Source: an uncultured Gammaproteobacteria bacterium (lineage in GTDB: Bacteria; Patescibacteriota; Microgenomatia; Daviesbacterales; UBA10151). From it: 58,574 nucleotides of DNA. The notes beneath the pieces were generated by a model that saw nothing but the letters and a program-made list of their open reading frames with translations, searched no databases and was not told the origin of the DNA. This document shows, one piece after another, positions 1-16,113 of this stretch (positions are counted from its first letter, which is position 1; every line of letters starts with the position of its first letter). The stretch is taken from NCBI GenBank assembly GCA_964394855.1, contig CAYMZD010000002.1, forward strand, positions 1-58,574, written 5' to 3'. Made by a program: the position numbers and the translations under genes.

Positions 1-62
1 TTGTCTTTTAGTGGGGGTTAGTTTACAGATTATTCGAACCTAAAGAAAAGCTTGATATTACG

Positions 63-94
63 GGACAAACTGAGCATTTATACGCTCAGCGTCC
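63..94 (-). terminator. Hairpin just downstream of tRNA-Asn (terminator or processing stem)
   Basis: GGAC/GTCC outer pairing and CTGAGC/GCTCAG inner stem; no clear U-tract, so function uncertain. Confidence 0.35.
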
Positions 95-98
95 TATC

Positions 99-173
99 TG
101 GCTCCCCCGGCAGGATTCGAACCTGCAACCTTCAAGTTAACAGCTTGCCGCGCTACCATTGCGCCACAGGGGA
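99..173 (-). tRNA. tRNA-Asn(GTT)
   Basis: Reverse complement folds as a cloverleaf: TCCCCTG acceptor, anticodon loop CT-GTT-AA, GGTTCGAATCC T-loop, encoded CCA. Confidence 0.96.
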
Positions 174-205
174 ATGTGTTGCAATTTTACCACAAAAAGG
201 TCTGT

Positions 206-1294
206 TTATTCCAAATAATCCCTTAACTTTTTAGCTCTGGTGGGGTGTTTAAGTTTCCTAATAGCTTTAGCCTCAATTTGTCTAATTCGCTCCCTGGTCA
301 CTCCAAATTCTCTTCCCACCTCCTCCAAAGTCCGCTGTTTACCATCATCCAGGCCAAAGCGAAGCTGCAACACTCTTTTCTCCCGAGGAGATAAGGTGTC
401 TAGAACTTCATCCAAATGGGCTTTTAAAAGCTCCCTGGTGGCTTGCTCATCAGGCAAAAGCCCCTGGGCTTGAATAAAATCCCCCAAGCGAGAATCATCT
501 TCATCCCCCACTGGTGTTTCCAAGGAGGTGGGCTCTTGGGAAACTTTAATAATTTCTCTGGCTTTTTGGGGCTCAATCCCCATCACCATAGCCACTTCTT
601 CTGGGGTAGGCTCTCTTCCCAACTCCTGCATTAGTTGTCGCTGAATGCGGTTGAAGCGATTAATGGTCTCCACCATGTGAACTGGAATGCGAATAGTCCT
701 GGCTTGATCTGCGATGGCTCGGGTAATGGCTTGGCGAATCCACCAGGTGGCATAGGTGGAGAATTTATATCCCCTTCTCCAGTCATATTTATCAACTGCT
801 CTCATCAAACCAATATTACCCTCTTCTATTAAATCCAAAAGGGACATTCCTCTCCCCACATATTTTTTGGCAATAGAAACTACCAACCTTAAATTAGCAC
901 TGGTTAATTTATCACGGGCCCGCTGGTCTCCTTTTTCAGCCCGTTTGGCCAAATCGATCTCCTCTTGGGCTGTTAAAAGCGCCACCCTACCAATGTCTCG
1001 AAGATATTGGCGAACCGGATCAGTCACAGAACCCCCTTCCAGGGTGGATAAAACTTCTAACTCCTTTTCCAGCTCTGAAACCGCCTTATCCTCATCTTCC
1101 AATTCTTCAGCAGTGGTTTCAAAGACATCCACATTTTCCTCCATCAAGCGGGTATAAAATATATCCAGGTCGGTAATGTTTTCTTCTGGCTTGGGAAAAA
1201 CTTGCAAAATCTCTTCTTGGGTCACAAAACCCCGATCTTTACCAAGTTTTAATAGTTTTTTGACATCCAAAATCGGCTGTTTGGTTCTTTTCAT
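206..1294 (-). CDS. rpoD: RNA polymerase primary sigma factor
   Basis: DPVRQYL (region 1.2), [46 protein letters not shown] (region 2), [21 protein letters not shown] (region 4). Confidence 0.98.
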
Positions 1295-1302
1295 TTTGCT
1301 TT

Positions 1303-3096
1303 TTAAAGATTTTTTAATTTTACAGAAAGATCTCTAAATCGTCTATTGAGTATCTCCACCATTTCTATTTTACCAAAGCTCTCGGCATTTTTAATCTCCA
1401 GGGATAACCGCTCCAATGAAGCTTTAATTAAGGCTTTTTTCAGCTCTGCCACCACTCCATCCACTTCTTTTTGCCAAACTCTTCTTTCCACTAGTTTCTC
1501 ATCAAGTTGAGTTAAATACAACCTATCCAGCTCCTCCACCAACTCTTTGGATATCTCTTTGGCAAATTCATTAATATTAAAAGCCCTACCCTTAAATGAA
1601 ATTGAATCTAAATACAGCACCAAAAGCACAAAAATTTGCCGCAGTGGCTCGGCCATCAATAGAGTTTCCGGAAAACCAGGTACAAATAGGTGATCTTTGG
1701 GAATATGCAGTAAAAGAGTAATTAAATATTCCTCCAAAAGCTGCCTGCGGGAACGAGGGTTAATTATTTCATCGTCACTTTGACCAGAGTGAAAAACTTG
1801 ACTATAGTTGGTTGGTCTTTTAAGAGTTTGTCTTTGTTTTTCCACCAACTTTCTTAAAATTGCTTCATCAGTTCGCACCAAGGCTGCCAACTTTTGAATA
1901 TAGTGATCTCTAACTAAATCATCGCTGATTTTGACCCAAATAGGCATCAGTTCTTGGCTAATTTTGCGCAGGGCGGCTGGATCTTGACTGTCATATCTTT
2001 GTGATACTGAATTTAGATAGTAGTCATAAATAGGAGTGGCTTCTGAAATGGCGCTTTGCCATTGTTGTGGGTCTTTTAAAACCACTTCTGCTGCATCTTT
2101 ACCATTTTTAATTTGAACAACTTTAATATTCAATCCTGCCATATCGGCAATCTCTATACCTCTTCTGGCAGCCCAATCTCCTGCCAAGTCTGTATCAAAA
2201 CAAAGACTTAAGTTTTCCGTGTATTTTTTAAGTAGTTCTATTTGCCCTTGGGTTAAGGCTGAACCTTTCACTGCCACCACATGCTTCACTCCTGCTTGAT
2301 ATGATAAAATCACATCCATCTCCCCTTCTAGCAAAATGGCTTCATTGTGACTGCGAATTTCTCCTTTGGTCTGGTGAATTCCAAAAAGAAAGCTGCTTTT
2401 GTCAAAAATGGTAGTTTGGGGAGTGTTGATATATTTAGCTCCTGCTCCCTGATCCTCTCCCAACACTCGCCCAGAAAAACCCAAAATTCTATCCCTGGTA
2501 TCAATTAAGGGAAAGGTCACTCTTCCTCGAAAACGGTCATAACAACCAGACTTTGAAGCTACTCCCAAACCAGATGTGATTAGTTCCTGGGCGCTAAAAC
2601 CTCGTTTAAGTAAAAATTTGCTTAAAGATTCCCAAGAATTGGGAGCATATCCCAAGCCAAAATCCTGTATTGACTGATCACTCACCCCCCTTTTTTTTAA
2701 ATATTCCTTGGCTGTCTGACCGAGCTGATGTTTGGTTAAAAGATAATGGAAAAATTCTTGAGCTTTTAAATTGACCTCAAAAAGTCTTTCTCTGAAATCT
2801 TTTTTCTGACCTGCTTTTCTTTTTAAAACCACTCCTGCTTTTTTGGCTAAAACTTCCAAGGCCTCTTTAAACTCCATTCCTTCTTTCTCCATTAAAAATT
2901 TGAAGTGGTCACCACCACGAGAACAACCAAAACAATGCCAGATTTGCCGCTCGGGAGATACCATAAAAGAAGGAGTTTTTTCGCTATGAAATGGGCAAAG
3001 AGCCTTAAAATTAACACCAGATTTTTTAAGAGGTAAATATTCTTGTATTAAATCAACAATATTAATCCGTTGCTTAATCAGCTCTAAATCATCCAT
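1303..3096 (-). CDS. dnaG: DNA primase (start moved to [10 protein letters not shown]; the longer ORF runs through a tRNA)
   Basis: CHC2 zinc finger [30 protein letters not shown] motifs EGEMD and DTDLAG. Confidence 0.97.
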
Positions 3097-3186
3097 ATTT
3101 TTATCCGATCGCCCGCTCAAAGCGTAGCCACCAGACTTAGGTTGCTTCGGATTATACCCCAAAATTTTCCCAAAAACAAGAGGGGG

Positions 3187-3273
3187 CGGTGGGAGTGGGA
3201 TTCGAACCCACGGTCGCCTTGCGGCGACACGATCTTTCCAGGATCGCCAGTTAAACCACTCCTGCATCCCACC
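3187..3273 (-). tRNA. tRNA-Ser(GGA)
   Basis: GGTGGGA acceptor, CGATC-CT GGA AA-GATCG anticodon arm, long variable arm, GGTTCGAATCC. Confidence 0.95.
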
Positions 3274-3315
3274 TTAAAACATTCAAATTATACTAGCTCA
3301 TGTTATACTTTAAAA

Positions 3316-3549
3316 GTGATTGATCAAAATAAAATTTTACTGATTATTATTGCTCTGTGGGAGCTGGTGTGGAAAGGAATTGCCCTGTGGAAGGCAGCTC
3401 AAAATAAACATTTAATCTGGTTTTTAGTTATTTTCATCATCAACAGTCTTGGCGTTTTGCCAATTTTATATCTTTTATATTTAAGGTTTCAAGATAGACT
3501 TCGCTTTTTGCAAAAGTTCCTGATCCCCTTTAAATTCAAGCTTTTTTAA
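3316..3549 (+). CDS. Small membrane protein, DUF5652-like (GTG start chosen; longer ORF overlaps the tRNA)
   Basis: LWELVWKGIALWKAAQNKHLIWF..INSLGVLPILY pattern; TGnTATACT 6 nt before GTG. Confidence 0.7.
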   Translation: MIDQNKILLIIIALWELVWKGIALWKAAQNKHLIWFLVIFIINSLGVLPILYLLYLRFQDRLRFLQKFLIPFKFKLF

Positions 3550-3885
3550 AGCTTCATCCAGCTCATACCAACCTGCTTCTTCCATTTCCCAATCATGGTC
3601 TTTCGGGTCTCCGGAAATATACTCCATTAAAAAATAAGTCACTACTTTAAATATTTTCTCGTTATTAAATGTATAAATATATTTTGAATAACCCACTTTA
3701 CCTAAAATTTTAGCTTCCACTCCCCCTTCTTCCTTGACTTCCCGCAGGGCTGTTTCCTCACTTTTGTGGCCCTCTTCAATTAAGCCCTTGGGAAAACCCC
3801 AGTGATGGTTGGTAGAGTGCTTAGTCAAAAGCACTTGGCCTTTTTTATTAAATACAATTCCACCTGCAGAAAATTCTCTTTTCAT
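3481..3885 (-). CDS. NUDIX hydrolase (Ap4A hydrolase-like)
   Basis: Nudix box GFPKGLIEEGHKSEETALREVKEEGG. Confidence 0.93.
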   Translation of the reverse strand: MKREFSAGGIVFNKKGQVLLTKHSTNHHWGFPKGLIEEGHKSEETALREVKEEGGVEAKILGKVGYSKYIYTFNNEKIFKVVTYFLMEYISGDPKDHDWEMEEAGWYELDEALKKLEFKGDQELLQKAKSILKP

Positions 3886-3920
3886 AACAGATACTTATTA
3901 TACCTTACACCATTAACCCA

Positions 3921-3950
3921 TTGACATTTATATTATTGTTGCTTTAAAAT
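3921..3950 (+). promoter_or_regulatory. Sigma70 promoter
   Basis: TTGACA, 18 nt, TAAAAT upstream of ATG 3971. Confidence 0.6.
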
Positions 3951-3970
3951 CCGATCATTGCCTTGATTTA

Positions 3971-4702
3971 ATGATCCAAGAAAAAATTATCACAGAAGAA
4001 GACCTTATTGATCCTCAAGATATAATAACTAGAGCTTTGGAGTTAAACGGATTGTCGGTCGGTCAAGTCAATTCTGATACTACCACGTTTTCTCAACCTA
4101 TTACCAGATATAGTATAGATTCAAACTTAAGAAGCTTTCTGGAAGAACGTGAATTTAGATTCAGACCATCAGATCACGGTCTTCATCTAATCAACACCCA
4201 AGCTCATGGAGATATTGGGTGGCGCTTTGATCCCAACGCACGGGAACTATTTTTATCTCCTATTGTCAGAATACAGATTATGCAACAAGAACGCGGAGTT
4301 ATGGTTTATCCAGACATAGGAGGATCTTTAAAAGCATCTTGTATGCATGAATATTCTAACTATAGATTATTCCTTGCTTTAACTGAATATGATCAACAAT
4401 CATCCGACTTATCAAGGAGAGTGGTGGTAAATGAGGGTCGATTATTAATTCCGTGGCAAGAATTAGGTCTTGCCGGCATTAGAACTGTTCAGGAACTTTT
4501 CAATGAATTGTTTAGAAATAGAGAGTTAGTTGAAAGTTTGGCAAGAATTTATCATCTTTCTCCATTCCGTCCCCATATATACTCACCTGATCAGTTTGAA
4601 CATCCAGAGCGTAAATTTATAGAGGAAGCTTTACAGGGAACATTACTTCGTCAGTGGAGAACCCAACTGGAAAAATTTAAGCAAGGGTTATCAGTAAATT
4701 AA
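3971..4702 (+). CDS. Hypothetical protein
   Basis: 243-codon ORF with its own promoter; no family recognised. Confidence 0.75.
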   Translation: MIQEKIITEEDLIDPQDIITRALELNGLSVGQVNSDTTTFSQPITRYSIDSNLRSFLEEREFRFRPSDHGLHLINTQAHGDIGWRFDPNARELFLSPIVRIQIMQQERGVMVYPDIGGSLKASCMHEYSNYRLFLALTEYDQQSSDLSRRVVVNEGRLLIPWQELGLAGIRTVQELFNELFRNRELVESLARIYHLSPFRPHIYSPDQFEHPERKFIEEALQGTLLRQWRTQLEKFKQGLSVN

Positions 4703-4736
4703 TTTAAATTCTCTTTTCATCATTCTTACAGCTTTG

Positions 4737-5513
4737 TTAAGGTTTAGTTGCCAAAATGGCGGAGTGAAGAACCCCATTATTAAATAAATGGTCGGGGTAA
4801 AAAATGTCTGCCGCTTTACCATCAAGTTTGGTCATTACCCCCCCCGCCTCTTCCATAATCACTTTGACCGCAGCCCAATCCCATGGTTTACCACCTCTGT
4901 ACAAACCAGCATCAAATCTACCTGCTGCAATATAACAGATTTCCAATAAGGAACAGTTTAAAATTGAGGCTGCCAAAATTCTACCGCTTAAACTATTCAA
5001 CCAAGCAGTATTTTTGCCGGCAGCTTCGGGAGAATAAAAATAATTAGTCACCAAAAAAGCCTGATCCAATGTGGACTTTTGACTAACATGGATTGGTTGT
5101 CCGTTTAAAGTGGCTCCCTGACCTTTTTGGGCCAAGAAAAATTCATTAAGCCTTGGGCAAAAAATAGCCCCAATTTGACCCTCCCCTTGATCGTAAAAAG
5201 CCACAGACACCACCCAAAGCGGTATGCCAAAAGTAAAATTCCGCGTTCCATCCAAAGGATCAATAATCCAGCAGGGTTTTTGTAGGCTAACCTCTTTTAT
5301 CCCCTCCTCTTCCGTTAAAATCTGATGGTCGGGAAAACGTCTCTTAACAGCAGTAACCAGATAATTTTCAGAGGCCAAATCAGCCTGGGTGGTATAATCT
5401 CCAGAACCCCTATCAGCAACTTTGACAATACTACCTTGATGCTTAAGCAATATCCTCCCGGCTTTTCTGGTAATTTGTTCTATAAATTTTACTGTTGGTT
5501 GTAACTCTTTCAT
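4737..5513 (-). CDS. suhB: Inositol monophosphatase family protein (SuhB-like)
   Basis: TQADLASE, ILTEE, WIIDPLDGTRNF, KPWDWAA motifs; start set at MKELQ. Confidence 0.9.
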   Translation of the reverse strand: MKELQPTVKFIEQITRKAGRILLKHQGSIVKVADRGSGDYTTQADLASENYLVTAVKRRFPDHQILTEEEGIKEVSLQKPCWIIDPLDGTRNFTFGIPLWVVSVAFYDQGEGQIGAIFCPRLNEFFLAQKGQGATLNGQPIHVSQKSTLDQAFLVTNYFYSPEAAGKNTAWLNSLSGRILAASILNCSLLEICYIAAGRFDAGLYRGGKPWDWAAVKVIMEEAGGVMTKLDGKAADIFYPDHLFNNGVLHSAILATKP

Positions 5514-6007
5514 TTTCCCTCCCACCATTGAAGTGTTAATTTGTGGTATTCCTCAATATCATAAGCCACAAAACCTGGCGTTTGAAACAGGATCATTTCT
5601 TTTAAGCTCAATCCTCTTGCTGATAACTCCTGCCACATAAACCCACTGCAATCCCTGCAAGATAAATCATCGGAAACACACATACCACCATTTTCTACTT
5701 TTAGGTGTAAGACTGAAGCTTGTCTGATATCATGCCCTTTAAAAATAGCATCCTGAATTGCATCTCTTTCTGCATGAATGGTAAATAGGTTGCACACTTT
5801 CTCGCACACTGCTGGTCGACAAAACCTTCCCTGGGGTGGTCTATTATAACCTCTACCTAACAAATCAACCGCAGCCAGTCCTGGGTTGATGTTAAAAACA
5901 ACTGCTCCTCTTCGGGATTTCCAACAGGAAGATAAAAGCGCAGACTCCTGGGCAGCTTGGATTACTCTTGTCATCAGGGTTATTTCTCTGGCTTCTAAAA
6001 TTCTCAT
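5510..6007 (-). CDS. Zinc-dependent cytidine/dCMP deaminase family protein
   Basis: SSC..GAVV, GRGYNRPP, HAE and SCRDC motifs; start set at MRILEAR because the upstream extension is repeat sequence. Confidence 0.8.
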   Translation of the reverse strand: MRILEAREITLMTRVIQAAQESALLSSCWKSRRGAVVFNINPGLAAVDLLGRGYNRPPQGRFCRPAVCEKVCNLFTIHAERDAIQDAIFKGHDIRQASVLHLKVENGGMCVSDDLSCRDCSGFMWQELSARGLSLKEMILFQTPGFVAYDIEEYHKLTLQWWEGK

Positions 6008-6022
6008 ATTATTTTGGTGCTG

Positions 6023-6072
6023 TGGCGAAACGTAATAATTCGCCTTTGGCGGATTAAACGTTTCAGCAACGT
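6023..6072. repeat. 50-bp palindromic direct repeat, copy 1
   Basis: TGGCGAAACGTAATAATTCGCCTTTGGCGGATTAAACGTTTCAGCAACGT, identical to 6457-6506. Confidence 0.95.
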
Positions 6073-6100
6073 TTAAATTGTAGGGCAATTTATTACGCTG

Positions 6101-6188
6101 CGGAGGCGGTAGGATTCGAACCTACGTGAGCCTTTCGACTCCCAGGGTTTTCGAAACCCGGCTGATAAACCACTCCAAGCACGCCTCC
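6101..6188 (-). tRNA. tRNA-Ser(CGA)
   Basis: GGAGGCG acceptor, loop TT-CGA-AA, long variable arm, GGTTCGAATCC. Confidence 0.92.
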
Positions 6189-6191
6189 AAA

Positions 6192-6440
6192 TTACAAAGA
6201 TCTTTTTAATAGTTTTTTAATACTTCTAAATCCCCATCCACTTTTTAGATAAATCTCTCTCTGTTTTGCGTCAATTCTATTTGTAAAAGCTTCATAGAAA
6301 ATTAGTCTGTATGGTCTTTTATATTTTGTTGATATTGATAAACCATCATTGTGTTCCTTAAAGCGTTTTTTCAGATCAGCAGTATAACCTATATACAAAC
6401 TATCATCTTTTTGACTCTTTAGAATATATACATAATACAT
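6192..6440 (-). CDS. Stand-alone GIY-YIG nuclease (YhbQ-like)
   Basis: MYYVYIL..LYIGYT.DLKKRFKEHN..LIFYEAF..A.QRE..LK; start set at MYYVY. Confidence 0.92.
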   Translation of the reverse strand: MYYVYILKSQKDDSLYIGYTADLKKRFKEHNDGLSISTKYKRPYRLIFYEAFTNRIDAKQREIYLKSGWGFRSIKKLLKRSL

Positions 6441-6456
6441 TATTAAGTAATTTAAT

Positions 6457-6506
6457 TGGCGAAACGTAATAATTCGCCTTTGGCGGATTAAACGTTTCAG
6501 CAACGT
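6457..6506. repeat. 50-bp palindromic direct repeat, copy 2
   Basis: Identical to 6023-6072; followed by a further AACGT-rich imperfect hairpin at 6501-6549. Confidence 0.95.
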
Positions 6507-6549
6507 AAAAACGTAAAATTTGTTTTGCAAATTAACGTTTTGTACGTTG

Positions 6550-6622
6550 CGCGCCCGGCGGGAATTGAACCCACAACCGCCAGATCCGCAATCTGGTGTT
6601 CTGTCCGTTGAACTACGGGCGC
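6550..6622 (-). tRNA. tRNA-Arg(GCG)
   Basis: GCGCCCG acceptor, CCAGA-TT GCG GA-TCTGG anticodon arm, GGTTCAATTCC. Confidence 0.93.
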
Positions 6623-6644
6623 AACAGGGGTATTTTACAACTTT

Positions 6645-7229
6645 TTAGTGATGGATGTTTTCCAGGGGAAAATGTTTCGCCAGACCTTCTGCCCAGCGAT
6701 CTAAAAGTGTTGTTCTGGGAATTTCATGAAATGGTAAAAACCTGGCCACTTCTTTTTTGACCTCTTCAGTGTCCTGTCCGCCAGCTGGCAGACCCAAAAC
6801 TAACATTAACTGACCGGGAAAGCGGAGCAAAGTTTGAATATACAACACCCTAAAGCCCTCTTTTTCTTTAAACCAAAACGAATCCAGTTCATGCCAAAAA
6901 TAAAAATGATCTCCAATAGTGACCCCTTGGGTGGAGATTTTATAAGTGACATCTTCTGGAGGGATAAAAGCCAAAACATAACTGACAAAAGTTAAAGCCA
7001 AAAGCACTCCAATCAACAAAAACTCCCTGGCTAAAAGAGCAATCAGGATTAACAGAATAACCAAAATAGCAATAGTAGTATAATAGGAACGCTCCTTTTT
7101 CCTAAAGGGCCTGGCTGGAGCTTGCCAAGAAAGTAAAGTTTTGACCTCCCCTGCTTCTCCCACTTTGGGATAAAATTCATCTTCACTTTCTTGTTTGGTT
7201 TCAATTGGTTTAGAAAAAAACTTAGGCAT
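6645..7229 (-). CDS. Conserved membrane protein (two TM helices plus PH-like C-terminal region)
   Basis: W.AP motif, hydrophobic pair of helices, YKISTQGV.I..FY.W pattern; carries an 18-bp palindrome in frame. Confidence 0.75.
   Translation of the reverse strand: MPKFFSKPIETKQESEDEFYPKVGEAGEVKTLLSWQAPARPFRKKERSYYTTIAILVILLILIALLAREFLLIGVLLALTFVSYVLAFIPPEDVTYKISTQGVTIGDHFYFWHELDSFWFKEKEGFRVLYIQTLLRFPGQLMLVLGLPAGGQDTEEVKKEVARFLPFHEIPRTTLLDRWAEGLAKHFPLENIHH
6776..6793. repeat. Intragenic short palindrome (CCAGCTGG family)
   Basis: GTCCGCCAGCTGGCAGAC, encodes LPAGGQ on the minus strand. Confidence 0.7.
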
Positions 7230-7274
7230 TATATTAATTGTAAATTATCAATCGGCAATTGTAAATTGATTGTG

Positions 7275-7361
7275 CGGTGGGGGTGGGATTCGAACCCACG
7301 AGAAGCTTCCGCCCCTAGCGGTTTTCAAGACCGCCGCACTAGGCCACTATGCGACCCCACC
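7275..7361 (-). tRNA. tRNA-Ser(TGA)
   Basis: GCGGT-CT TGA AA-ACCGC anticodon arm, long variable arm. Confidence 0.95.
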
Positions 7362-7369
7362 ATGATAAG

Positions 7370-7456
7370 CGGAGAGGGTGGGATTCGAACCCACGATACC
7401 CTTACGGGTATAGCTCGTTAGCACCGAGCGGCACTCGACCACTATGCGACCTCTCC
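7370..7456 (-). tRNA. tRNA-Ser(GCT)
   Basis: GCTCG-GT GCT AA-CGAGC anticodon arm, long variable arm, GGAGAGG acceptor. Confidence 0.93.
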
Positions 7457-7489
7457 TTACGCACCTAATTTTACCAGAAATAGGAATAT

Positions 7490-8194
7490 TTATCTAGCCA
7501 AAGTTATTGCCCAGACTTTTTTAGCGCCGGCGCGTTTTAGCACATAGCAACATTCTCTCAATGTTGACCCGGTAGTCCAGACATCATCTATTAGCAGAGT
7601 ATGGGGTTTGGGGTATCGGGTATAGCTAGGGGTAATCTCAAAAGCATTTTTGATATTTTGTCTTCTCTCCCTTTCAGAAAGCTTTGTTTGGGAACGGGTA
7701 TAACGAGTACGTTTTAAGGCCTCACAGTAATTTAAACCTAACTTTTTGGATAAAAATTGTCCCAGTAGTGCTGACTGATTAAAACCCCGATCATTGTGCC
7801 TCCACCAAAAAAGAGGCACTGGTACCACTACCCATCCTTTCCCTTTATCTTTCTTTATTTCATCCAGTAAAAAAGGTTGGTATTTAGCCCAATATTCCAG
7901 TAAAATATCCACCAAAACCGGGGCAAAATCCCTCACTAATTTGGGTTTATATTTTAATTTTTGAATGGCAGCTCTTAAGGGATCTTGATAAACCCCTAAA
8001 CTCCATAAGCCATCTAAACCATACTTCCTTCTGCAAACAGGGTGAGTCGCTCCTCCAATGGCCAATCTTTCACATCTGGGGCAAACTAGATCTCCTTGTT
8101 TAATATCATTCACACAATCAGCACAAAAATATGTCCCCTCTTTTCCGCAACCCACACATTTTTTGGGAAATAAAAAATCCAAGACAAAGCTCAT
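7490..8194 (-). CDS. comF: ComF family competence protein (zinc finger plus PRTase domain)
   Basis: C..C..C..C..C..C N-terminus, RGFNQS, LLIDDVWTTGSTL. Confidence 0.92.
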   Translation of the reverse strand: MSFVLDFLFPKKCVGCGKEGTYFCADCVNDIKQGDLVCPRCERLAIGGATHPVCRRKYGLDGLWSLGVYQDPLRAAIQKLKYKPKLVRDFAPVLVDILLEYWAKYQPFLLDEIKKDKGKGWVVVPVPLFWWRHNDRGFNQSALLGQFLSKKLGLNYCEALKRTRYTRSQTKLSERERRQNIKNAFEITPSYTRYPKPHTLLIDDVWTTGSTLRECCYVLKRAGAKKVWAITLAR

Positions 8195-8237
8195 GCCACT
8201 TGATTTTAGGCCTTGAGTGTGGTATATTACAACTTAC

Positions 8238-8595
8238 GGGGATGTCAAGTTTCGACAGGATGGCACTTTAAAAACTGCAAGCCGTTAAACCAATCTGTAA
8301 CGTAAAATTGTGTTGGGAAAGACAAACGCCAATTTATTTGGTCGTTCCAATAGAGTAAGCGGAGCTTACGCCTAAAGGTGTTTTAAGGTAGCTTCAAGAC
8401 GTATCCTTAAAGCAAGTACCCAGCCTTGATGCAGTTCCGATGATTTAATCCATCAATCGGAATCAAGCAATTTGGATTAAGTATTAACCTTCCTGCTAGT
8501 AGGTTACAAGTTAATACTCTCATATATACTAGCTAAGCTTGTAGAAGTTTTTAAAAGGTTTATCTTGGACGGGGGTGCAAAACCCCCCATCTCCA
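8238..8595 (+). ncRNA. ssrA: tmRNA
   Basis: 5' GGGGATG..TTCGAC, 3' CATCTCCA with G3:U70 pair, internal tag ORF 8316-8375 ending AYA-stop, smpB nearby. Confidence 0.93.
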
Positions 8596-8658
8596 CCCAT
8601 CATTCTTTGCCTGTTAATTCCTGTTCTGCGGGTAGCGACTTTTTTGTTTTCTCTATGT

Positions 8659-9075
8659 TTAAGCTAGCTCAAAACCGGCTTTAGTAAAATGGGCATCAAA
8701 GGCGGCCGCTTTTTTCAAACCTAATCTTTTCATTAAGGCAAATGATACACAATCGGTAAAGGAGAGTTTACTCCAATCTTTTAAAAACCAGTCCCAGGCC
8801 CCAGCTTCATCGGCCACTGACACCCGGACAATTTTTAAAATCGCCGAGATGGTGGTCAGATATTTTCTCAATTCGTTGACTATTTCTAAACCACATTTTA
8901 TCCTGATCAGAGTAAAGCTTTCGTCAAGAACGTAGTTAGAAGTAATTAAACTAATTTGTTGCTGATTTACTTTTTGTTCAATTTTCTTGGCCTGTTGATG
9001 AAATTTGTCTTTGGGGTCAATAATTGCCTTAAAAAAGCTAGTATCTACAAAAGCCATGCCTTGATCATTCTTCAT
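8659..9075 (-). CDS. vapC: PIN-domain (VapC-like) toxin
   Basis: FVDTSFF, TSNYVLDE, LSFTDCVSFALM, AFDAHF motifs. Confidence 0.92.
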   Translation of the reverse strand: MKNDQGMAFVDTSFFKAIIDPKDKFHQQAKKIEQKVNQQQISLITSNYVLDESFTLIRIKCGLEIVNELRKYLTTISAILKIVRVSVADEAGAWDWFLKDWSKLSFTDCVSFALMKRLGLKKAAAFDAHFTKAGFELA

Positions 9076-9316
9076 AAATGATTTTATCTATTTCAGATAA
9101 CTCTCCCATAGGCTTTGGTTTTACCTTTTTGCTTATTTCAGATAATTTCAAAGTAGGAACTTTTTCAGGAAAGGTTAACTCTAATTTGGTAGACAAATCT
9201 CTTATCAAATAGTTAATATACTCATTTGCACTCATACCTAGCTCTGCAGCAGTAGTTTTGACTTGAAGCCAGTCTATCTCGTCTATTCGCAAATTGGTAA
9301 CAATCTTTTTGGCCAT
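9065..9316 (-). CDS. Putative antitoxin (ribbon-helix-helix-like)
   Basis: Small gene overlapping vapC; TNLRID..A.ELGMSANEYI pattern. Confidence 0.75.
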   Translation of the reverse strand: MAKKIVTNLRIDEIDWLQVKTTAAELGMSANEYINYLIRDLSTKLELTFPEKVPTLKLSEISKKVKPKPMGELSEIDKIIYEE

Positions 9317-9318
9317 TT

Positions 9319-9354
9319 CATACTAAATATACTATATTATGTTTAGTATGTCAA
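9319..9354 (-). promoter_or_regulatory. TA promoter with inverted-repeat operator
   Basis: TTGACA, 17 nt, TATATT on the minus strand; CATACTAAA-N14-TTTAGTATG inverted repeat overlapping it. Confidence 0.75.
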
Positions 9355-9368
9355 GCGCCTACTGGGTC

Positions 9369-9809
9369 TTAAGTTTTTCCCCTTAGTTCCTGTTCTATAC
9401 GGCGGGCATGGTCGCGTTCTTTTAAAACTCTCCTTTTGTCAAATTCTTTTTTACTCTTGCCCAAACCAATATCTACTTTGAATCTGTTATTTTTTTCATA
9501 TAGGGAAACAGGTACCAAAGTCACTCCTTTACCTGAAGTTTTACCGATTAAACTCATAATTTGCGCTTTATGAAGTAACAGTTTTCTTAAGCGAGTTGGG
9601 TCATAAGCTTTTTGAGAACTTTCCGCATATCTGGGGATATTGACATTAATAAGATAAGCTTCTCCATTTAAAACCCGCACATAAGACTCCCCTAAATCTA
9701 TCCTGCCAGCTCTTATTGATTTAACTTCGCTACCGGATAAAACAATTCCCGATTCTAAATGTTCCAGGATATGGTAATTGTGTAGGGCTTTTTTGTTTAA
9801 AATTTTCAC
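9369..9809 (-). CDS. smpB: SsrA-binding protein
   Basis: NKKA.HNY.I, GIVL.G.EVKSIR, R.RKLLLHK, G.GK..FDKR. Confidence 0.97.
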   Translation of the reverse strand: MKILNKKALHNYHILEHLESGIVLSGSEVKSIRAGRIDLGESYVRVLNGEAYLINVNIPRYAESSQKAYDPTRLRKLLLHKAQIMSLIGKTSGKGVTLVPVSLYEKNNRFKVDIGLGKSKKEFDKRRVLKERDHARRIEQELRGKT

Positions 9810-11590
9810 TTCAAATCCATTGTAAATATTTTGTTCCCATCCAGCAAATATACTTTTTTAATCTTCTCATCTACCACCAGATCCAAGACTGTAGCAAATT
9901 TATCACCCAGATACTGCTGTTTATAAGCTCCCACTTTAGTTAAAACCAAAAGGCGAGAGTTGCCTGAATCTAAAACATAGAGGTTATCTACCTCTGATGA
10001 GGTGAAAAAGCCCTTAGGGTCTTTGATACCCTTATCCAAACCGCCAATAGAGAAAAAGTCCGCCGTCCCTTTGGTAAAACGCAAGATTTCTCCTCCTATC
10101 TTTAATACATAAATTGAGGACTCAATCTGCATTCTTTTGGCCCCTGCCAAGTTGGCCTTAACCTCTTTTTGTAAGTATTCTCTTTTATCAGAATAGCCAC
10201 CAGTTATTGGTAGGTACTTCCAAATCTGATTGCCTTTAGCATCCAACAAATAGATATTACCGGCAAAGCCATATAAATCAACTACCTCGCCCCAATCTTT
10301 ATCTAGTTTGGCAGCAGCAGAGGCTGTTTTACTGTCAACATTAACGACTAATACCCCCTTGTCAACTGAATAAATAAAGGCTAAATTACCATTTAAAGTG
10401 GCAAATTTGGCCTCACCTAATTTTTCCTTACCCGCCAAAATTTGGTGGTTTTTTTTATCTTTATCAATTAACACCAAAGTCTGATCGTTGGAATTCAAGA
10501 GTAACAGCTTTCCTGCTGATAAGCTGACATAATCAGCCTTAAAACCGTTCTTTATTAAGTTCAAATCCAAATATAAGTCAAATTTGGTATTTTCATATTT
10601 TTGAGAGACACTACCTTGACTGCCTTCGATTTGAGCTTGCAAGGCATTGGCTTTTTGATCATTTGGTTTTAAAGACAGGGCCTTTTTTAAGTTTTCCTTG
10701 GCGCTTCCAAGTTTTTGGCCAGCATCAGCAGGATTAACATCTGCCAAACCTTGGGCAGCAGCGAAATCATCACTGGCTCGTTGCATAGCCTCATTAAATT
10801 GGCGGTTAACCTCCTCATTTTTGCTGCTTTGATATTTTAGACCAGTACCCGCTGCTAAAATGGCTATTAGGACCAAAGCCACTATCAGTTTAGCTCTACT
10901 GCTTTTGGGGAAAAATCTTTTTATCAGGAGGCTTAAATCTGAAAGTGACAAAGTTAACCTTGGTAAAACTTTTTTCTCTTCAGCTTCTTCTGCTGTGTGC
11001 GGAATGAGTATTTGCTCTTCCCCCTCAACATCTAAGACGATGGCGGCCAGCTCCTCTGGTGAACCCAAGTTAATTTTATTGGCCACCTCTTCTTCCCACT
11101 GCAGTATGGGTAGTTCTAAAGAATTTTTTAATTCTTCTCCTAAAAATAAAGTAAAGCTTTGAGTTGATAAAAGTATTCTATCTCCTTCTTGTAAAAATCC
11201 CGAGACCAGCTGGCCGCTGCTGTGCTGAAAAAGCAAAGATAAATGATCAATTCTGCGCAGATAAGCTACTATTTCACCTTGACCAATAAGGTACAAGACT
11301 TTACCCACTACAGCTCCCAAAAGCAGGGAAAAATTAGTGGTATCTTGCAGTTTTTGCTGACCTTCTTGAAAAACACCAGTTAACCTCTCACCCACCCCGT
11401 TTCCATTTGGCTCAAAATATAAATCAGATAGCTCTGACAAAAGTTGTCTGCCCCTGGTAAAAGCATCATCCGAGGTTAGCTTTAAAACGGCCAAAAAGAT
11501 ATTTTCTCCGTCTGGAGGAGAAGCTAAAACCAGGGCAGCTTGCTGATCTGAATTTAATCCTAAAGCCTTAGCTATTTTAAAAACCATCAC
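9806..11590 (-). CDS. Membrane-anchored protein: PP2C-like N-terminus, TM helix, beta-propeller (NHL-like) C-terminus
   Basis: GDRILLST segment, central TM, repeated NLYVLD/NIYLLD blades. Confidence 0.65.
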   Translation of the reverse strand: MMVFKIAKALGLNSDQQAALVLASPPDGENIFLAVLKLTSDDAFTRGRQLLSELSDLYFEPNGNGVGERLTGVFQEGQQKLQDTTNFSLLLGAVVGKVLYLIGQGEIVAYLRRIDHLSLLFQHSSGQLVSGFLQEGDRILLSTQSFTLFLGEELKNSLELPILQWEEEVANKINLGSPEELAAIVLDVEGEEQILIPHTAEEAEEKKVLPRLTLSLSDLSLLIKRFFPKSSRAKLIVALVLIAILAAGTGLKYQSSKNEEVNRQFNEAMQRASDDFAAAQGLADVNPADAGQKLGSAKENLKKALSLKPNDQKANALQAQIEGSQGSVSQKYENTKFDLYLDLNLIKNGFKADYVSLSAGKLLLLNSNDQTLVLIDKDKKNHQILAGKEKLGEAKFATLNGNLAFIYSVDKGVLVVNVDSKTASAAAKLDKDWGEVVDLYGFAGNIYLLDAKGNQIWKYLPITGGYSDKREYLQKEVKANLAGAKRMQIESSIYVLKIGGEILRFTKGTADFFSIGGLDKGIKDPKGFFTSSEVDNLYVLDSGNSRLLVLTKVGAYKQQYLGDKFATVLDLVVDEKIKKVYLLDGNKIFTMDLK

Positions 11591-11817
11591 AAAATCCCAT
11601 ACACCAAAAAGATAAAGCCAATGGCAAAGCCGGCATGAATAATGGCCACAGCCTTAAAAATAGGCGATATGTTGGTGATTAAAACTTGACTCATTAAACT
11701 GACTTGACGGATAATCAATAAGGCAAATATAGCGTAAAACGCTAAAATTAGCAAAATAGCTAATTTGACAATTTCCAAAGACATGATAATTTCCAGTAGA
11801 TTGTTGGTAACCGGCAT
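11587..11817 (-). CDS. Small membrane protein, DUF5657-like
   Basis: FYAIFALLIIRQV.LM...H pattern with two TM segments. Confidence 0.65.
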   Translation of the reverse strand: MPVTNNLLEIIMSLEIVKLAILLILAFYAIFALLIIRQVSLMSQVLITNISPIFKAVAIIHAGFAIGFIFLVYGIL

Positions 11818-11822
11818 AATTT

Positions 11823-12374
11823 TTAGCTTCCTCCTTGAGCTTTATGAGCTTCATCCATAATAATATCAGCTACTCTATTGGGGTTGGGGACCCGGGGAAA
11901 ATCTATCTCCACCCTGGCCCCGGCAGTTTGCACCATCACATCGCCGAAATGGAAAATTACCCCCATTAACCCGGCTACCTTAGGATTGGCTTCTTGAACC
12001 GACGCCAGTAAGGTGATATCCATACCGCTAAAAAGAAGCGAGTGAAAATCAATATCAACCAGCTTTTTGTTAGTTAAGATATTAACATTAAAATACCAGC
12101 CCAAAAATCCCTCAAAAACAATCACCAAAACCAAAAGATAATTAATAATCAAAAAACTGCTCAAAAAAGTATCTGGCAAAGAAGTAAAAAGATTAAAACC
12201 TAAATACAGAGCCAGCTGGGGCAGAAAAAATGGTAGTAAAAAAACCAAAACTGCAGGAATGATCCAGGATAAATTAGTAATGGGATGAGCTCGAAGTAGC
12301 AAAATAATAACCTCATCACTGTCTTGACCTTGAAAACGGCAGTTTCGAGGGTTTTCCAGGTAGGATGGAAACAT
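11823..12374 (-). CDS. Membrane protein with bacterial PH domain
   Basis: LLLRAHP, two TM helices, ILTNKKLVDID, FHFGDV.VQTAG. Confidence 0.8.
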   Translation of the reverse strand: MFPSYLENPRNCRFQGQDSDEVIILLLRAHPITNLSWIIPAVLVFLLPFFLPQLALYLGFNLFTSLPDTFLSSFLIINYLLVLVIVFEGFLGWYFNVNILTNKKLVDIDFHSLLFSGMDITLLASVQEANPKVAGLMGVIFHFGDVMVQTAGARVEIDFPRVPNPNRVADIIMDEAHKAQGGS

Positions 12375-14136: not shown

Positions 14137-14964
14137 ATGCTTACTGCCTTAAAAAGACTTACCCTGTTGGTATTTTTTTTGATAATCGCTTGCTTTGCTC
14201 TAGCAGAGGGAAATATTGTTTTAGGCAGAACCGAACTGGAGATAAGTGGGGATTTTGATCAACCATTCCCTCCCTACAGAATCCAAATTGGTAAAACCAT
14301 CACTCTTTCTGTCACTGATAGCTCGTGTAATCAACCAGCTACTTTAAGCTATGTGGCACTGCCCACGTCTCAACAAATCACCCTGCAGTCTCAAAGTTTA
14401 AATGTACCAGCAGAGGGATTATTAAAGTTCATCCCTGTAATTGGTGCTATTCCCAACCTGTTTAAAATATTCAACGTTTCGGGAACTAGCGCAGATATGA
14501 CGCCTACCGAACCCGGAGGTTATTATCTCTATGCTCAATGCGGCAGCTCTGGTAAAGCTGATAAAATAGATATCAAGTTTGTCAGTGTATATGATCCCAA
14601 CCCTCTACTGCCGCCTTCCCCGGTCAGTTCTTCACCGCCTGTTTCAGGGGGCGGCTTTTGCAATGCTGGTGGGGGAGTAGACAACGGCATTGATACTGCC
14701 ATAGGTTGTGTGCCAACCGATCTAACAGGCCTGATTCATGCTTTTTTGAGGTTAGCCACTGGCATAGCAGGCGGAATCGCCTTTATACTAATGGTCGCCG
14801 GTGCCTTCCAAATGATTACCTCAAGCGGTGACCCAGATACCCTTAAAAAGGGTCAGGATATGTTTAAATCTGCTGTTATTGGACTTTTGTTTATTATCTT
14901 TGCCGTACTATTGCTGCAAATTATTGGAGTTGATATACTGCAAATACCAGGATTTCAACGATGA
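14137..14964 (+). CDS. VirB2/TrbC-like pilin with large N-terminal extension
   Basis: C-terminal AG..MITS.GDP...KKG...SAVIGLL pilin motif, preceded by an exported beta-rich region. Confidence 0.75.
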   Translation: MLTALKRLTLLVFFLIIACFALAEGNIVLGRTELEISGDFDQPFPPYRIQIGKTITLSVTDSSCNQPATLSYVALPTSQQITLQSQSLNVPAEGLLKFIPVIGAIPNLFKIFNVSGTSADMTPTEPGGYYLYAQCGSSGKADKIDIKFVSVYDPNPLLPPSPVSSSPPVSGGGFCNAGGGVDNGIDTAIGCVPTDLTGLIHAFLRLATGIAGGIAFILMVAGAFQMITSSGDPDTLKKGQDMFKSAVIGLLFIIFAVLLLQIIGVDILQIPGFQR

Positions 14965-15275
14965 AAACTTTAAGCTTACAACTACCTGGTGGTCAAACTA
15001 TCACAAGCCCTCAAACAAAATTTAGCGATTTAGGTAGTTTTATTTCCGGCCTTTATGAAATCGTCTTTTATTTAGCTATATTCTTGGCTTTCTTCTGGCT
15101 GGTATGGGGAGCGTTTCAATATATCGTAGCCGGCGGCAACAAAGAAAACTTGGCCAAAGCTAGCGCCAGAATAACCTGGGCTATTGTGGGTTTACTGCTA
15201 GTGGCTGTTGCTTTTTTAATAGCTCAATTCGTGGGACAAGTATTACAGCCAAAAATATCAACACCAATCATATGA
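14961..15275 (+). CDS. VirB2/TrbC-like pilin
   Basis: WGAFQYI.AGGNKE...A.ARITWAIVGL. Confidence 0.8.
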   Translation: MKTLSLQLPGGQTITSPQTKFSDLGSFISGLYEIVFYLAIFLAFFWLVWGAFQYIVAGGNKENLAKASARITWAIVGLLLVAVAFLIAQFVGQVLQPKISTPII

Positions 15276-15583
15276 GAAAATTAACCATAACGTTGGCAGC
15301 GGTAGATATTGGACAAAGTTATGCTTTTGGTGATGTCTTGACTTTGGGTGAGGGCGTTCAAAGACTGGTGGCTCCCACCTTTTCCATCGCGGCAGCGGTG
15401 GTGGTGATATATTTTTTAATCGGGGCTTTTAAATATTTAACTTCTGGGGGGGATAAAGAGGCTATTGGTGGAGCTTACAGGATGATAACTCATGCCGTCA
15501 TTGGTTTTGTGATTTTAATATTTGCCTTTTTAATTTTACAGTTTATTCCACAAGCCTTTGGTATTAGATTTTCCATATTTTAA
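15272..15583 (+). CDS. VirB2/TrbC-like pilin
   Basis: GAFKYLTSGGDKE..A..MIT.AVIGF. Confidence 0.8.
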   Translation: MRKLTITLAAVDIGQSYAFGDVLTLGEGVQRLVAPTFSIAAAVVVIYFLIGAFKYLTSGGDKEAIGGAYRMITHAVIGFVILIFAFLILQFIPQAFGIRFSIF

Positions 15584-15585
15584 AT

Positions 15586-16062: not shown

Positions 16063-16072
16063 ATTATGCCAC

Positions 16073-16110
16073 TTGACAAGCTGCAGGGAATTTTCCTATG
16101 ATGAAAGGAG
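16073..16110 (+). promoter_or_regulatory. Internal sigma70 promoter and SD in the pilin array
   Basis: TTGACA, 18 nt, TATGAT, then AGGAG before ATG 16114. Confidence 0.6.
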
Positions 16111-16113
16111 AAT

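Follow-up and report, generated by a model that had tools for sequence, protein, structure and literature searches.

The 50-bp repeat that occurs twice around a small GIY-YIG nuclease gene in the window (the whole 58,574-nt stretch analyzed here) is, on balance, probably the second hairpin, with its conserved flanks, of a module inserted at the 3' ends of tRNA and tmRNA genes. Together with the gene for an 82-aa GIY-YIG protein, this module would form a cassette moving among CPR tRNA genes; the identity of the two copies in the window would result from gene conversion, and the nuclease would act on the hairpin DNA. Such a cassette, which follows tRNA and tmRNA genes immediately in many CPR bacteria, is apparently undescribed so far, and our literature search found no report that connects palindromes or tRNA trailers with small GIY-YIG genes. 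Judging from sequence comparisons, a clade of Slx1/UPF0213-like genes, each for an 82-aa GIY-YIG protein, has the module as its constant 5' companion, and module and ORF make up a cassette of ~0.35 to 0.45 kb that has changed places between different tRNA genes of the CPR (Microgenomates/Patescibacteria). In the window, the module behind tRNA-Arg(GCG) contains the ORF; the one that follows tRNA-Ser(CGA) is older and solo. The gene thus seems bracketed by repeats because two adjacent tRNAs each bear a module.

Two identical 50-mers around the GIY-YIG gene and a tRNA had been reported in the first-pass annotation, and exact copies of the sequence (TGGCGAAACGTAATAATTCGCCTTTGGCGGATTAAACGTTTCAGCAACGT) are indeed present on the minus strand at positions 6023-6072 (copy 1) and 6457-6506 (copy 2), with a spacing of 434 nt. 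The number of matches (2) exceeded that expected from 100 shuffles (0), and the 50-mer is the sole sizeable direct repeat across the entire 58-kb window. Read on the gene strand, it comprises the last 5 nt of a first hairpin, hairpin A (ACGTT), a GCTG linker, hairpin B, and CGCCA. These parts lie at 6506-6502, 6501-6498, 6497-6462, and 6461-6457 in copy 2; in copy 1, ACGTT is followed by the linker (6067-6064), hairpin B (6063-6028), and CGCCA (6027-6023). The copies diverge at their edges (TTAAA vs AAAAA on one side, tgctg vs ttaat on the other), and the sequences 3' of hairpin B are CGCCACAGCACC and CGCCAATTAAAT. Either strand of each copy forms an imperfect hairpin (RNA z-scores of -4.4 and -4.0), and the copies folded as DNA with the adjacent hairpin gave z-scores of -5.4 to -6.6. 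An alternative, attenuator-like pairing between the 3' side of hairpin A and the 5' side of hairpin B was strong in copy 1 only (9 bp) and weak in copy 2. The proposed match of the triloop stem to an insert in tsaD (38551-39594, minus strand) did not hold up: the palindrome in that gene (AAATCAGAAACTAGTTTCTGATTT, at 38717-38740) is unrelated, and the CGCC-TTT-GGCG stem has no further copy anywhere in the window.

The repeat is not an assembly artifact, a doubt raised in the first reading of this DNA, since it is shorter than a sequencing read, its copies are split by unique sequence, and the order module, GIY-YIG gene, tRNA-Ser(CGA), module was found again in an independent metagenome contig (L053). 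Intrinsic terminators, or palindromes that arose by chance and were doubled by local tandem duplication or misassembly, are an extremely improbable reading of these hairpins. They do lie downstream of tRNA genes, where terminators are common, but no T-run follows them and a scan of positions 5800 to 7600 returned 0 terminator-like sites. The identity ends at 50 nt with unrelated flanks, and the architecture is kept, with covariation, in dozens of independent contigs. An Rfam scan of positions 1 to 12000 gave no non-tRNA match at an E value of ≤1 over either copy.

All features of the locus lie on the minus strand. The occupied cassette is bounded on the left by the 3' end of tRNA-Arg(GCG) (6549-6622; ARAGORN; Rfam tRNA, 67.7 bits). 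Hairpin A of module 2 (6502-6548; AACGTAC[AAAACGTTAATTTGCAAAACAAATTTTACGTTTT]TACGTT), a hairpin nested in a hairpin, starts right at this end; it matches our covariance model R1 on the opposite strand and is therefore an inverted B-type unit. Copy 2 of the 50-mer, which scores 51 bits with R1 (E = 4.5e-10), is followed 16 nt downstream by the ATG of the GIY-YIG ORF (6192-6440, start at 6440; Pfam PF01541), which encodes a stand-alone nuclease of the UPF0213/Slx1-like type. Three nucleotides past its stop codon comes tRNA-Ser(CGA) (6100-6188; ARAGORN), the right boundary of the occupied cassette and the only tRNA-Ser(CGA) gene that ARAGORN found in the window; the same succession of ORF and tRNA was seen in L035, L053, and L054. 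Behind it lies module 1, a solo module without nuclease ORF. Its hairpin A' (6068-6099; AGCGTAATAAATTGCCCTACAATTTAAACGTT) folds, matches R1 on the opposite strand (6067-6102), and is nearly the same as the hairpin A that follows tRNA-Ser(CGA) in L053. Copy 1 follows, and 15 nt downstream of it is the ATG of an ordinary gene, a 165-aa cytidine/dCMP-deaminase-like ORF (5510-6007) with a weak match to Pfam PF00383. Only two homologs of this ORF were found, both distant and in unrelated contexts, and neither adjoins a tRNA. In both modules, hairpins A and B thus form a doublet of inverted asymmetric hairpins starting at the tRNA 3' end. The position of the 50-mers downstream of tRNAs agrees with the initial description, which had put it at 30 to 45 nt; the measured distances are 27 nt from the end of tRNA-Ser(CGA) and 42 nt from that of tRNA-Arg(GCG).

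The same organization, hairpin A, GCTG, hairpin B, and CGC(C), with A as an inverted B-type unit, was recovered well beyond the window. A two-hairpin layout is common to the tRNA-to-ATG spacers of all close relatives, and every close relative of the nuclease (at least ~62% identity) with enough upstream DNA carries this hairpin architecture upstream, which bears out the suspected tie between palindrome and GIY-YIG gene. The usual order is tRNA, hairpin doublet, ORF: same-strand tRNA ends were located within 200 nt upstream in 29 of the 37 assessable close relatives, and the upstream gene was one of ten tRNA species or tmRNA (L083 and L102). A loose regular expression for the hairpins was too permissive (634 matches, equal on both strands), and a stricter pattern, which gave 46 of 48 matches on the gene strand, and a covariance model were used instead. 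For the B units (28 distinct sequences, 13 pairs), pairing was present in 99.7% of the cells, against 36 to 49% in controls in which the alignment was slid. Seven of the B pairs showed double changes, with 67 compensated cells vs 17.9 in shuffles (0 of 500 shuffles reached 67). Moreover, the covariance model of the B units recognized 32 distinct A units on the opposite strand. Across all loci, modules were located at tRNA or tmRNA ends or adjoining the ORF. Hairpins behind tRNAs that lack the nuclease, which the first-pass annotation took as telling against a link with the enzyme, do exist: solo modules follow 8 tRNAs. Most loci were gathered via the GIY-YIG gene, so that the share of modules with an ORF (29 of 37) is biased. 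A scan of a genome collection with the inner stem gave 31 matches, 30 of them a generic GC stem only and one (L030) homologous; a metagenome scan with a 20-base half-site gave no matches.

That the module is inserted DNA, and not a host tRNA trailer, follows from empty orthologous sites. Empty-site alleles, which the earlier reading had proposed to look for, were found in two syntenic Daviesbacteria genomes (L126 and L127), where tRNA-Arg(GCG) is separated from tRNA-Ser(CGA) by 4 to 5 nt and both module and nuclease gene are absent; the orthologous site is occupied in the window and in the sister species L035. In L067, the cassette is shifted one tRNA along the same cluster. The ORFs of L047 and L048 encode proteins with 94% identity and have homologous leaders; the tRNAs in front of them are unrelated (54/74 identity), and so are the upstream flanks. 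Duplications of a tRNA 3' end were confined to L062, where the ORF sits between direct repeats of 104 nt that include 22 nt of the tRNA-Glu 3' end, and L041, where 18 nt of the tRNA 3' end are repeated; none was seen in the window. Truncated ORFs were found in L051, L086, L100, L113, and L126. The hairpins also behave like copied DNA, as had been supposed: in addition to being missing from these empty sites, they are nested within each other, and modules are identical within the genome in L052 and in L062. In L053 the A units match and the B units differ, the reverse of the window. No genes for tyrosine or serine recombinases were found among the neighboring genes.

Exact direct repeats of 50 bp could support deletion, and the L062 ORF placed between its repeats would fit a unit that loops out. 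Nevertheless, a 434-bp excisable unit of hairpin B, GIY-YIG gene, and tRNA-Ser(CGA), as once suggested, is very improbable. The tRNA belongs to an ancestral Arg(GCG)-Ser(CGA)-Arg(CCG) cluster seen in L126 and L127 and is the sole gene of its kind in the window, the solo module behind it is old and common to L053, and L035 keeps the order tRNA-Arg, GIY-YIG, tRNA-Ser without the second repeat copy, which argues against a conserved excisable unit of nuclease and tRNA-Ser.

A function in RNA is a more serious alternative to an inserted cassette, if still an unlikely one. Here, the doublet in the transcript would part the tRNA from the mRNA (through RNase Z, III, or E) or protect the 5' end of a short-leader mRNA, and the GIY-YIG ORF would be a frequent passenger of well-expressed safe sites. 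The module is always on the transcribed strand, spans from the discriminator or CCA to 0 to 30 nt before the ATG, and comes without a Shine-Dalgarno sequence; our scan found no promoter-like or terminator-like site between tRNA and GIY-YIG ORF, and solo modules precede the start codons of ordinary genes (such as NUDIX, VIT1-like, and the deaminase-like ORF) by 0 to 55 nt, all of which would suit such a role. GIY-YIG genes within non-intron insertions of CPR rRNA genes, as described in PMC11270868, point the same way. However, L126 and L127 manage without a module at the orthologous junctions between tRNA and NUDIX gene. The earlier suggestion of a processing or termination hairpin keeps the tRNA-trailer position and loses both the terminator, for which the scan gave no site, and, in related genomes, the need for a hairpin at tRNA-mRNA junctions. 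Among 1,010 pair cells, 999 were Watson-Crick, 3 were G·T, and 4 were A·C; an RNA structure would be enriched in wobble pairs, and this excess is absent. Nor does an RNA role require hairpin A to be an inverted B unit, while homogenization, nesting, and duplicated tRNA 3' ends indicate copying of DNA. If the module did act in RNA, it would show how reduced genomes punctuate tRNA-mRNA co-transcripts.

The 82-aa protein belongs to the GIY-YIG superfamily (PF01541, 59.9 bits against a cutoff of 22.6; E = 3.1e-16), with the Pfam domain filling residues 1 to 67. The catalytic residues Y5, Y16, G18, Y19, R26, H30, and E62 are invariant across 20 relatives with 71 to 95% identity. Its closest kin in sequence and fold are the UPF0213 proteins and the Slx1 nuclease domain: a phmmer search of the PDB returned 1zg2 (UPF0213; E = 1.6e-7), 1ywl (E = 8e-6), and then SLX1, and Foldseek with the AlphaFold2 model (pLDDT of 90) ranked 1zg2 first and gave a TMq of 0.63 to 0.68 for Slx1 and 0.52 for I-TevI. 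The model is a single beta-beta-alpha-beta-alpha-alpha domain, and neither it nor Pfam reveals a DNA-binding domain fused to the nuclease in the ORF that could select tRNA flanks, a point against the cassette model. Pfam found only GIY-YIG and T5orf172 domains, and no HUH-Y1 (IS200-like) transposase. A phage origin received no support from PHROG families (no match) or IMG/VR (no relatives), matches to defense systems in PADLOC were marginal (E = 1e-3 or weaker), and a look-up of the 103-aa start variant (P0005) gave no record. The dN/dS ratio was ~0.04 against L035, and dN was 0.02 to 0.25 with dS saturated, indicating very strong purifying selection, which would suit a host function and is not what one usually sees in a homing gene that is purely selfish. 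The dS of the ORF against L035 (0.48) is only 2 to 3 times below that of the flanking genes (1.06 and 1.59) over 82 codons, so that it gives at most a faint hint of recent transfer.

Small stand-alone GIY-YIG proteins of the UPF0213/YhbQ type are among the commonest "nuclease family protein" annotations. To our knowledge they have no assigned role, and we know of no function or repeat association reported for bacterial UPF0213 proteins. The analysis suggests a concrete partnership for them, with a DNA or RNA hairpin module having invariant CGT/ACG and GCTG/CGCC elements and a fixed genomic position. The CPR protein shares with UPF0213, YhbQ, YazA, and Slx1 (PDB 1zg2, 1ywl, and 4xlg) the GIY-YIG catalytic residues as well as the best sequence and fold matches; it differs from Slx1 in lacking a PHD/RING finger and an Slx4 partner. 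Slx1 cuts branched and stem-loop DNA (PMC7017083), which by analogy would fit a hairpin substrate for the CPR nuclease.

We propose that the nuclease recognizes the DNA hairpin or cruciform form of the module by two features, the conserved stem base (CGT/ACG) and the flanks (GCTG/CGCC), and that nicking or cutting there would stimulate recombination. This would homogenize the modules of each genome, copy the ORF to solo modules or to further tRNA flanks, and now and then leave a duplicated tRNA 3' end. The exact 50-nt identity in the window, with a shared derived C·A mismatch, probably reflects recent short-tract gene conversion between neighboring modules, and the tRNA-flank position would provide read-through expression without an own promoter. 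A mechanism at the DNA level is preferred because of the few wobble pairs, the inverted-unit symmetry, and the homogenization. Going further, it is conceivable, and we put it forward tentatively from sequence data, that a bare GIY-YIG nuclease of the Slx1-like kind, together with the cognate hairpin doublet that co-evolves with it, constitutes a new class of minimal mobile elements that colonize tRNA and tmRNA 3' ends by structure-specific cleavage and recombination. Solo doublets would be its non-autonomous members, and the class would be a tRNA-flank-specific counterpart of RAYT/REPIN, widespread in CPR. If the nuclease does act on the module, this would be the first mobile system that is guided by hairpins and has a GIY-YIG core as its driver. 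In that case it would also account for some of the tRNA-cluster shuffling in CPR genomes and make a structure-specific nuclease of very small size available for study. Either way, hairpins, solo modules, and decayed ORFs can serve as markers for the annotation of CPR genomes.

A genome with REP repeats has tens to hundreds of them, dispersed outside genes. A true system of this kind, in which a single-copy nuclease flanked by palindromes disperses them genome-wide, was the parallel drawn in the first-pass annotation. The nuclease-hairpin link that it implied stands; there is no HUH transposase, the window shows no dispersal, and bracketing is less common than the one-sided layout. The cassette resembles RAYT and REP/REPIN systems (PMC3116915 and PMC3337134) in its conserved low-copy nuclease gene, under strong conservation as RAYTs are, and in imperfect palindromes that form inverted doublets and are homogenized per genome; the ORF is flanked by modules on both sides at ~8 of 39 distinct loci. 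Yet the enzyme is a GIY-YIG and not an HUH-Y1 protein, and modules seem few, with one orientation and only in tRNA/tmRNA 3' flanks: over the 58.6 kb of the window (62 kb when L001 is added) there are 2, each at a tRNA 3' end, with none intergenic elsewhere. Furthermore, A and B are not mutually complementary, so that the arms of the doublet stay unpaired with each other and a long REPIN hairpin is impossible. We thus regard a genuine RAYT/REP-like system as improbable.

The cassette also recalls IS200/IS605 and other hairpin-guided single-strand transposition, in which subterminal imperfect hairpins and conserved flanking tetranucleotides define the element, but it has no TnpA/TnpB, carries both hairpins on one side of the ORF, and targets a tRNA end instead of a tetranucleotide. 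With integrative elements whose att site lies in a tRNA 3' end it shares the insertion point and, in L041 and L062, a direct repeat of the tRNA 3' segment; it differs by its size (~0.4 kb), by having no integrase, and by the lack of tRNA-end duplication in most copies, including those of the window. According to the portion of Tsurumaki et al. 2024 (PMC11270868) available to us, GIY-YIG genes occur in insertions of CPR rRNA genes without intron features, which are likewise small ORFs embedded in stable-RNA genes or operons of the same superphylum. Those insertions lie inside the rRNA genes, unlike the cassette, and that portion describes neither a hairpin doublet nor a link to tRNAs. Free-standing GIY-YIG homing endonuclease genes are known from phage tRNA clusters, as T4 SegB (PMC2330249). 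In common with this type, the CPR gene lies between tRNA genes, shows presence/absence polymorphism and co-inheritance with flanking tRNA DNA, and has decayed copies, expected of the life cycle of homing genes. SegB-type enzymes have a C-terminal DNA-binding domain, whereas the CPR protein is a bare 82-aa catalytic core; the CPR element is cellular, not phage, and has an obligatory covarying hairpin doublet, insertion exactly at tRNA 3' ends, and an unusually conserved protein.

The sequence TGGCGAAACGTAATAATTCGCCTTTGGCGGATTAAACGTTTCAGCAACGT occurs in the window as two exact copies, at 6023-6072 (copy 1) and 6457-6506 (copy 2), which surround a GIY-YIG open reading frame (ORF) and a tRNA-Ser(CGA) gene, as the first-pass annotation had described. 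No exact 50-mer pair is expected by chance, and we found no further direct repeat of similar length in these 58.6 kb of a CPR genome. Every gene of the region is on the minus strand, in the order tRNA-Arg(GCG) (6622-6549), a 47-nt hairpin, copy 2, the GIY-YIG ORF of 82 aa (6440-6192), tRNA-Ser(CGA) (6188-6100), a 32-nt hairpin, copy 1, and a deaminase-like ORF that begins at 6007. In gene-strand orientation, the 50-mer reads ACGTT-GCTG-[AAACGT T TAATCCGCC AAA GGCGAATTA TT ACGTTT]-CGCCA, beginning with the final 5 nt of one hairpin (hairpin A, which lies upstream) and continuing with GCTG as a linker, another hairpin (hairpin B), and CGCCA. The resemblance to a "tsaD insert" proposed earlier did not hold up. 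The tsaD coding region (38551-39594, minus strand) carries at 38680-38745 a perfect 10-bp palindrome, AAATCAGAAA-CTAG-TTTCTGATTT, preceded within the coding region by TTAATTCT-type short repeats and unrelated to the 50-mer. The tRNA-Ser(CGA) gene (6102-6188, minus strand) matched the Rfam tRNA-Sec model with 43.2 bits, short of the gathering score (47) and above the score of the general tRNA model; since its anticodon is CGA, this probably reflects just the long variable arm. Elsewhere in the window, a T4SS-pilin-like small gene cluster and a PrgI-family gene (14137-16428 and 19558-20577), with ComF-like, SmpB, and tmRNA genes nearby, are content typical of CPR bacteria, with no bearing on the repeats.

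Relatives of the nuclease formed 795 protein clusters (E = 1e-8 or better), with source names including Daviesbacteria, Levybacteria, Microgenomates, Pacebacteria, Uhrbacteria, and Giovannonibacteria, and their DNA loci were obtained by exact-protein look-up (10 loci) and from metagenomes (80 loci). All relatives with at least ~62% identity showed one constant layout from the upstream gene to the ATG: tRNA 3' end, 0 to 3 nt, hairpin A, GCTG, hairpin B, CGC(C), a spacer of 0 to 30 nt, and the start codon. We call the hairpin doublet with its linkers the module, and the module plus ORF the cassette. A same-strand tRNA identified by ARAGORN ended at most 200 nt upstream in 29 of 37 assessable loci, and a tmRNA was the upstream gene at 2 additional loci. 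The tRNAs used belong to 10 different species. The tRNA-like 3' end of tmRNA is followed by hairpins and a GIY-YIG ORF in L083 (2449-2886), L102 (2453-2884), and L126 (2103-2517), the ORF of the last being reduced to a C-terminal remnant (2592-2711). More distant clades (51 to 61% identity; L087, L089, L090, L103, and L115) have another leader with the same logic, in which G+C-rich hairpins of 6 to 8 bp with 5-nt loops lie directly behind the tRNA, with GGC[AT]G[CT]C between them and GGCGCC at the close. Nuclease clade and hairpin type seem to go together, and GCTG/CGCC-like linkers seem to be kept across clades. A third group of distant ORFs (L088, L091, L093, L096, L097, L099, L110, L122, and L123) has no upstream tRNA and carries a CCCCGTTAGA / CCCGGCAGTAGAAA-like motif 10 to 25 nt ahead of the ATG, which may represent another insertion context.

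The stems of the hairpins covary. Among 28 distinct B units, 99.7% of the 360 pair cells were standard pairs, both sides changed in 7 of 13 pairs, and 67 cells were compensated, compared with 17.9 in shuffles (0 of 500 reached 67); sliding the partners lowered pairing to 36 to 49%. The CGT/ACG stem base and the GCTG/CGC flanks were invariant. Since the covariance model of B also matches hairpin A on the opposite strand (32 distinct units), the module is a doublet of a single asymmetric hairpin type in inverted orientation. The A units, including that of the window, are often nested, hairpin inside hairpin. Over 80 distinct units, 999 of 1,010 pair cells were Watson-Crick, 3 were G.T, and 4 were A.C, in a model-fitted alignment that is biased towards structure and draws on units gathered with pairing-favoring tools. 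A structure selected only as RNA is expected to tolerate G.U and not A.C. The symmetric G.T and A.C exceptions and the inverted-unit arrangement indicate that pairing is important in both strands of the DNA, and the hairpins are selected structures, probably at the DNA level. As single-stranded DNA, both window modules folded into a pair of hairpins whichever strand was taken (z-scores between -5.4 and -6.6). They showed no T-run or terminator-like site, and no promoter-like site was found between the tRNA and the GIY-YIG ORF of the window. The main rival explanation gives the module a role in RNA punctuation or stabilization and makes the ORF a passenger; the strict orientation of modules and the near-leaderless ATGs fit such a role, but the scarcity of wobble pairs and the inverted-unit design are at odds with it.

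Orthologous junctions empty of the module do not fit an RNA role either. A TlyA/FtsJ methyltransferase gene adjoining L030, the one locus selected by its hairpins, served as a nuclease-independent anchor and yielded syntenic Daviesbacteria loci. In L126 and L127, tRNA-Arg(GCG) and tRNA-Ser(CGA) are 4 to 5 nt apart (with tRNA-Arg(CCG) 4 nt further on in L127), a NUDIX gene follows the tRNA cluster, none of the 13 tRNAs has a module, and no nuclease ORF was found at the cluster. Relative to the window, these are empty sites, alleles of the kind that the first-pass annotation had proposed to look for. In L035 (nuclease 95% identical), the cassette lies between tRNA-Arg(GCG) and tRNA-Ser(CGA), with no module behind the latter; in L067, these tRNAs are 8 nt apart, the cassette lies behind tRNA-Ser(CGA), and a solo module lies behind tRNA-Arg(CCG). 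The module represents inserted DNA, and its cassette relocates between tRNA genes: L047 and L048, with proteins 94% identical and homologous leaders, follow tRNA-Arg(TCT) and tRNA-Arg(TCG), which agree at only 54 of 74 positions and whose upstream flanks are unrelated, and ORF pairs ~85% identical are split between Trp and Ser(GGA) tRNAs in one case and Glu and Trp tRNAs in another.

Over non-redundant loci, 37 of 108 tRNA/tmRNA genes had a module, 29 with the ORF next to it and 8 solo, among them copy 1 of the window. The latter is old: its layout (module, ORF, tRNA-Ser(CGA), module) recurs in L053, whose nuclease is 78% identical, with a hairpin A behind tRNA-Ser(CGA) nearly identical to its counterpart in the window. 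Modules within a genome are homogenized in patches: L052 and L062 each have fully identical modules, L053 has matching A units and differing B units, and the window shows the reverse. Given this patchiness, the unrelated flanks, and a C.A mismatch common to both window copies and absent from the L030 orthologue, the 50-nt identity is best explained by recent conversion of a short tract between neighboring paralogous modules. It is no marker of element ends; the bracket reported earlier holds in that modules lie on both sides of the ORF in the window, an arrangement found in ~8 of 39 distinct loci. Ordinary genes without a Shine-Dalgarno sequence (deaminase-like ORF, NUDIX) start 0 to 15 nt behind solo hairpin B in the window (6007), L053 (1210), and L067 (899), with CGC|ATG and CAC|ATG junctions, which suggests that translation in these genomes can start without a leader or close to a hairpin.

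The ORF product, at 82 aa, amounts to no more than a GIY-YIG core, and all of its catalytic residues are invariant. Its nearest sequences are the UPF0213 proteins 1zg2 and 1ywl. In its predicted fold (pLDDT 90), it most resembles 1zg2 and the nuclease domain of Slx1 (TMq 0.63-0.68), and I-TevI less so. The family to which YhbQ and YazA belong has Slx1 as its founding member (PMC7017083). Purifying selection is strong (dN = 0.02 and dS = 0.48 against L035; dN ~0.1-0.25 with saturated dS against other relatives), and the ORF (91.5% nucleotide identity) diverges far more slowly than its own leader (59%). We found no phage relatives in PHROG or IMG/VR and no convincing defense-system match with PADLOC. 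The strong conservation of the protein speaks against a purely selfish role and for a lasting one that may be domesticated, as has been suggested for RAYTs.

The closest known analogues of the cassette are SegB-type GIY-YIG genes within phage tRNA clusters (PMC2330249), RAYT/REPIN systems (PMC3116915), and the GIY-YIG genes that CPR bacteria carry in non-intron insertions of their rRNA genes (PMC11270868). It is set apart from all three by a nuclease that lacks any additional domain, by a covarying hairpin doublet that is obligatory, and by strict placement at the tRNA/tmRNA 3' flank. Our literature search, which cannot prove absence, found no account of such a cassette. We rate it as a variant of homing-type nuclease cassettes or nuclease-plus-palindrome systems, with a reasonable chance of it forming an element class of its own. 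In the most likely scheme, the nuclease would recognize the module in its hairpin form, extruded or single-stranded, through the invariant stem base and flanks, the covarying stems providing structure only. Breaks at a module would be repaired from another module, which could spread the ORF, homogenize modules, and occasionally duplicate tRNA ends; the conserved T-arm may supply microhomology for hops between tRNA genes, and the ORF may be expressed by tRNA read-through.

Two loci bear scars. In L062, the ORF is flanked by two 104-nt repeats, each consisting of the final 22 nt of tRNA-Glu, hairpins A and B, and CGCAAAATT, and in L041, 18 nt of the tRNA-Arg(TCT) 3' end are repeated behind the stop codon. 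The ORF is truncated or frameshifted in L051, L086, L100, and L113, besides the remnant behind the tmRNA of L126. The apparent frameshift of L051, in an A-run, could be a sequencing error or mark a pseudogene; this locus has at least five ACGT-type hairpin units (630-1420), of which some precede tRNA-Arg(GCG) and one, large and nested, lies behind tRNA-Ser(CGA). In L068 (1626-1760) and L079 (333-490), a second hairpin doublet right behind the GIY-YIG stop codon is followed by what looks like the C terminus of an HTH protein of the XRE type (...IAKALGVSIEDLIK*), an arrangement that would result if the cassette had interrupted or pushed aside its gene.
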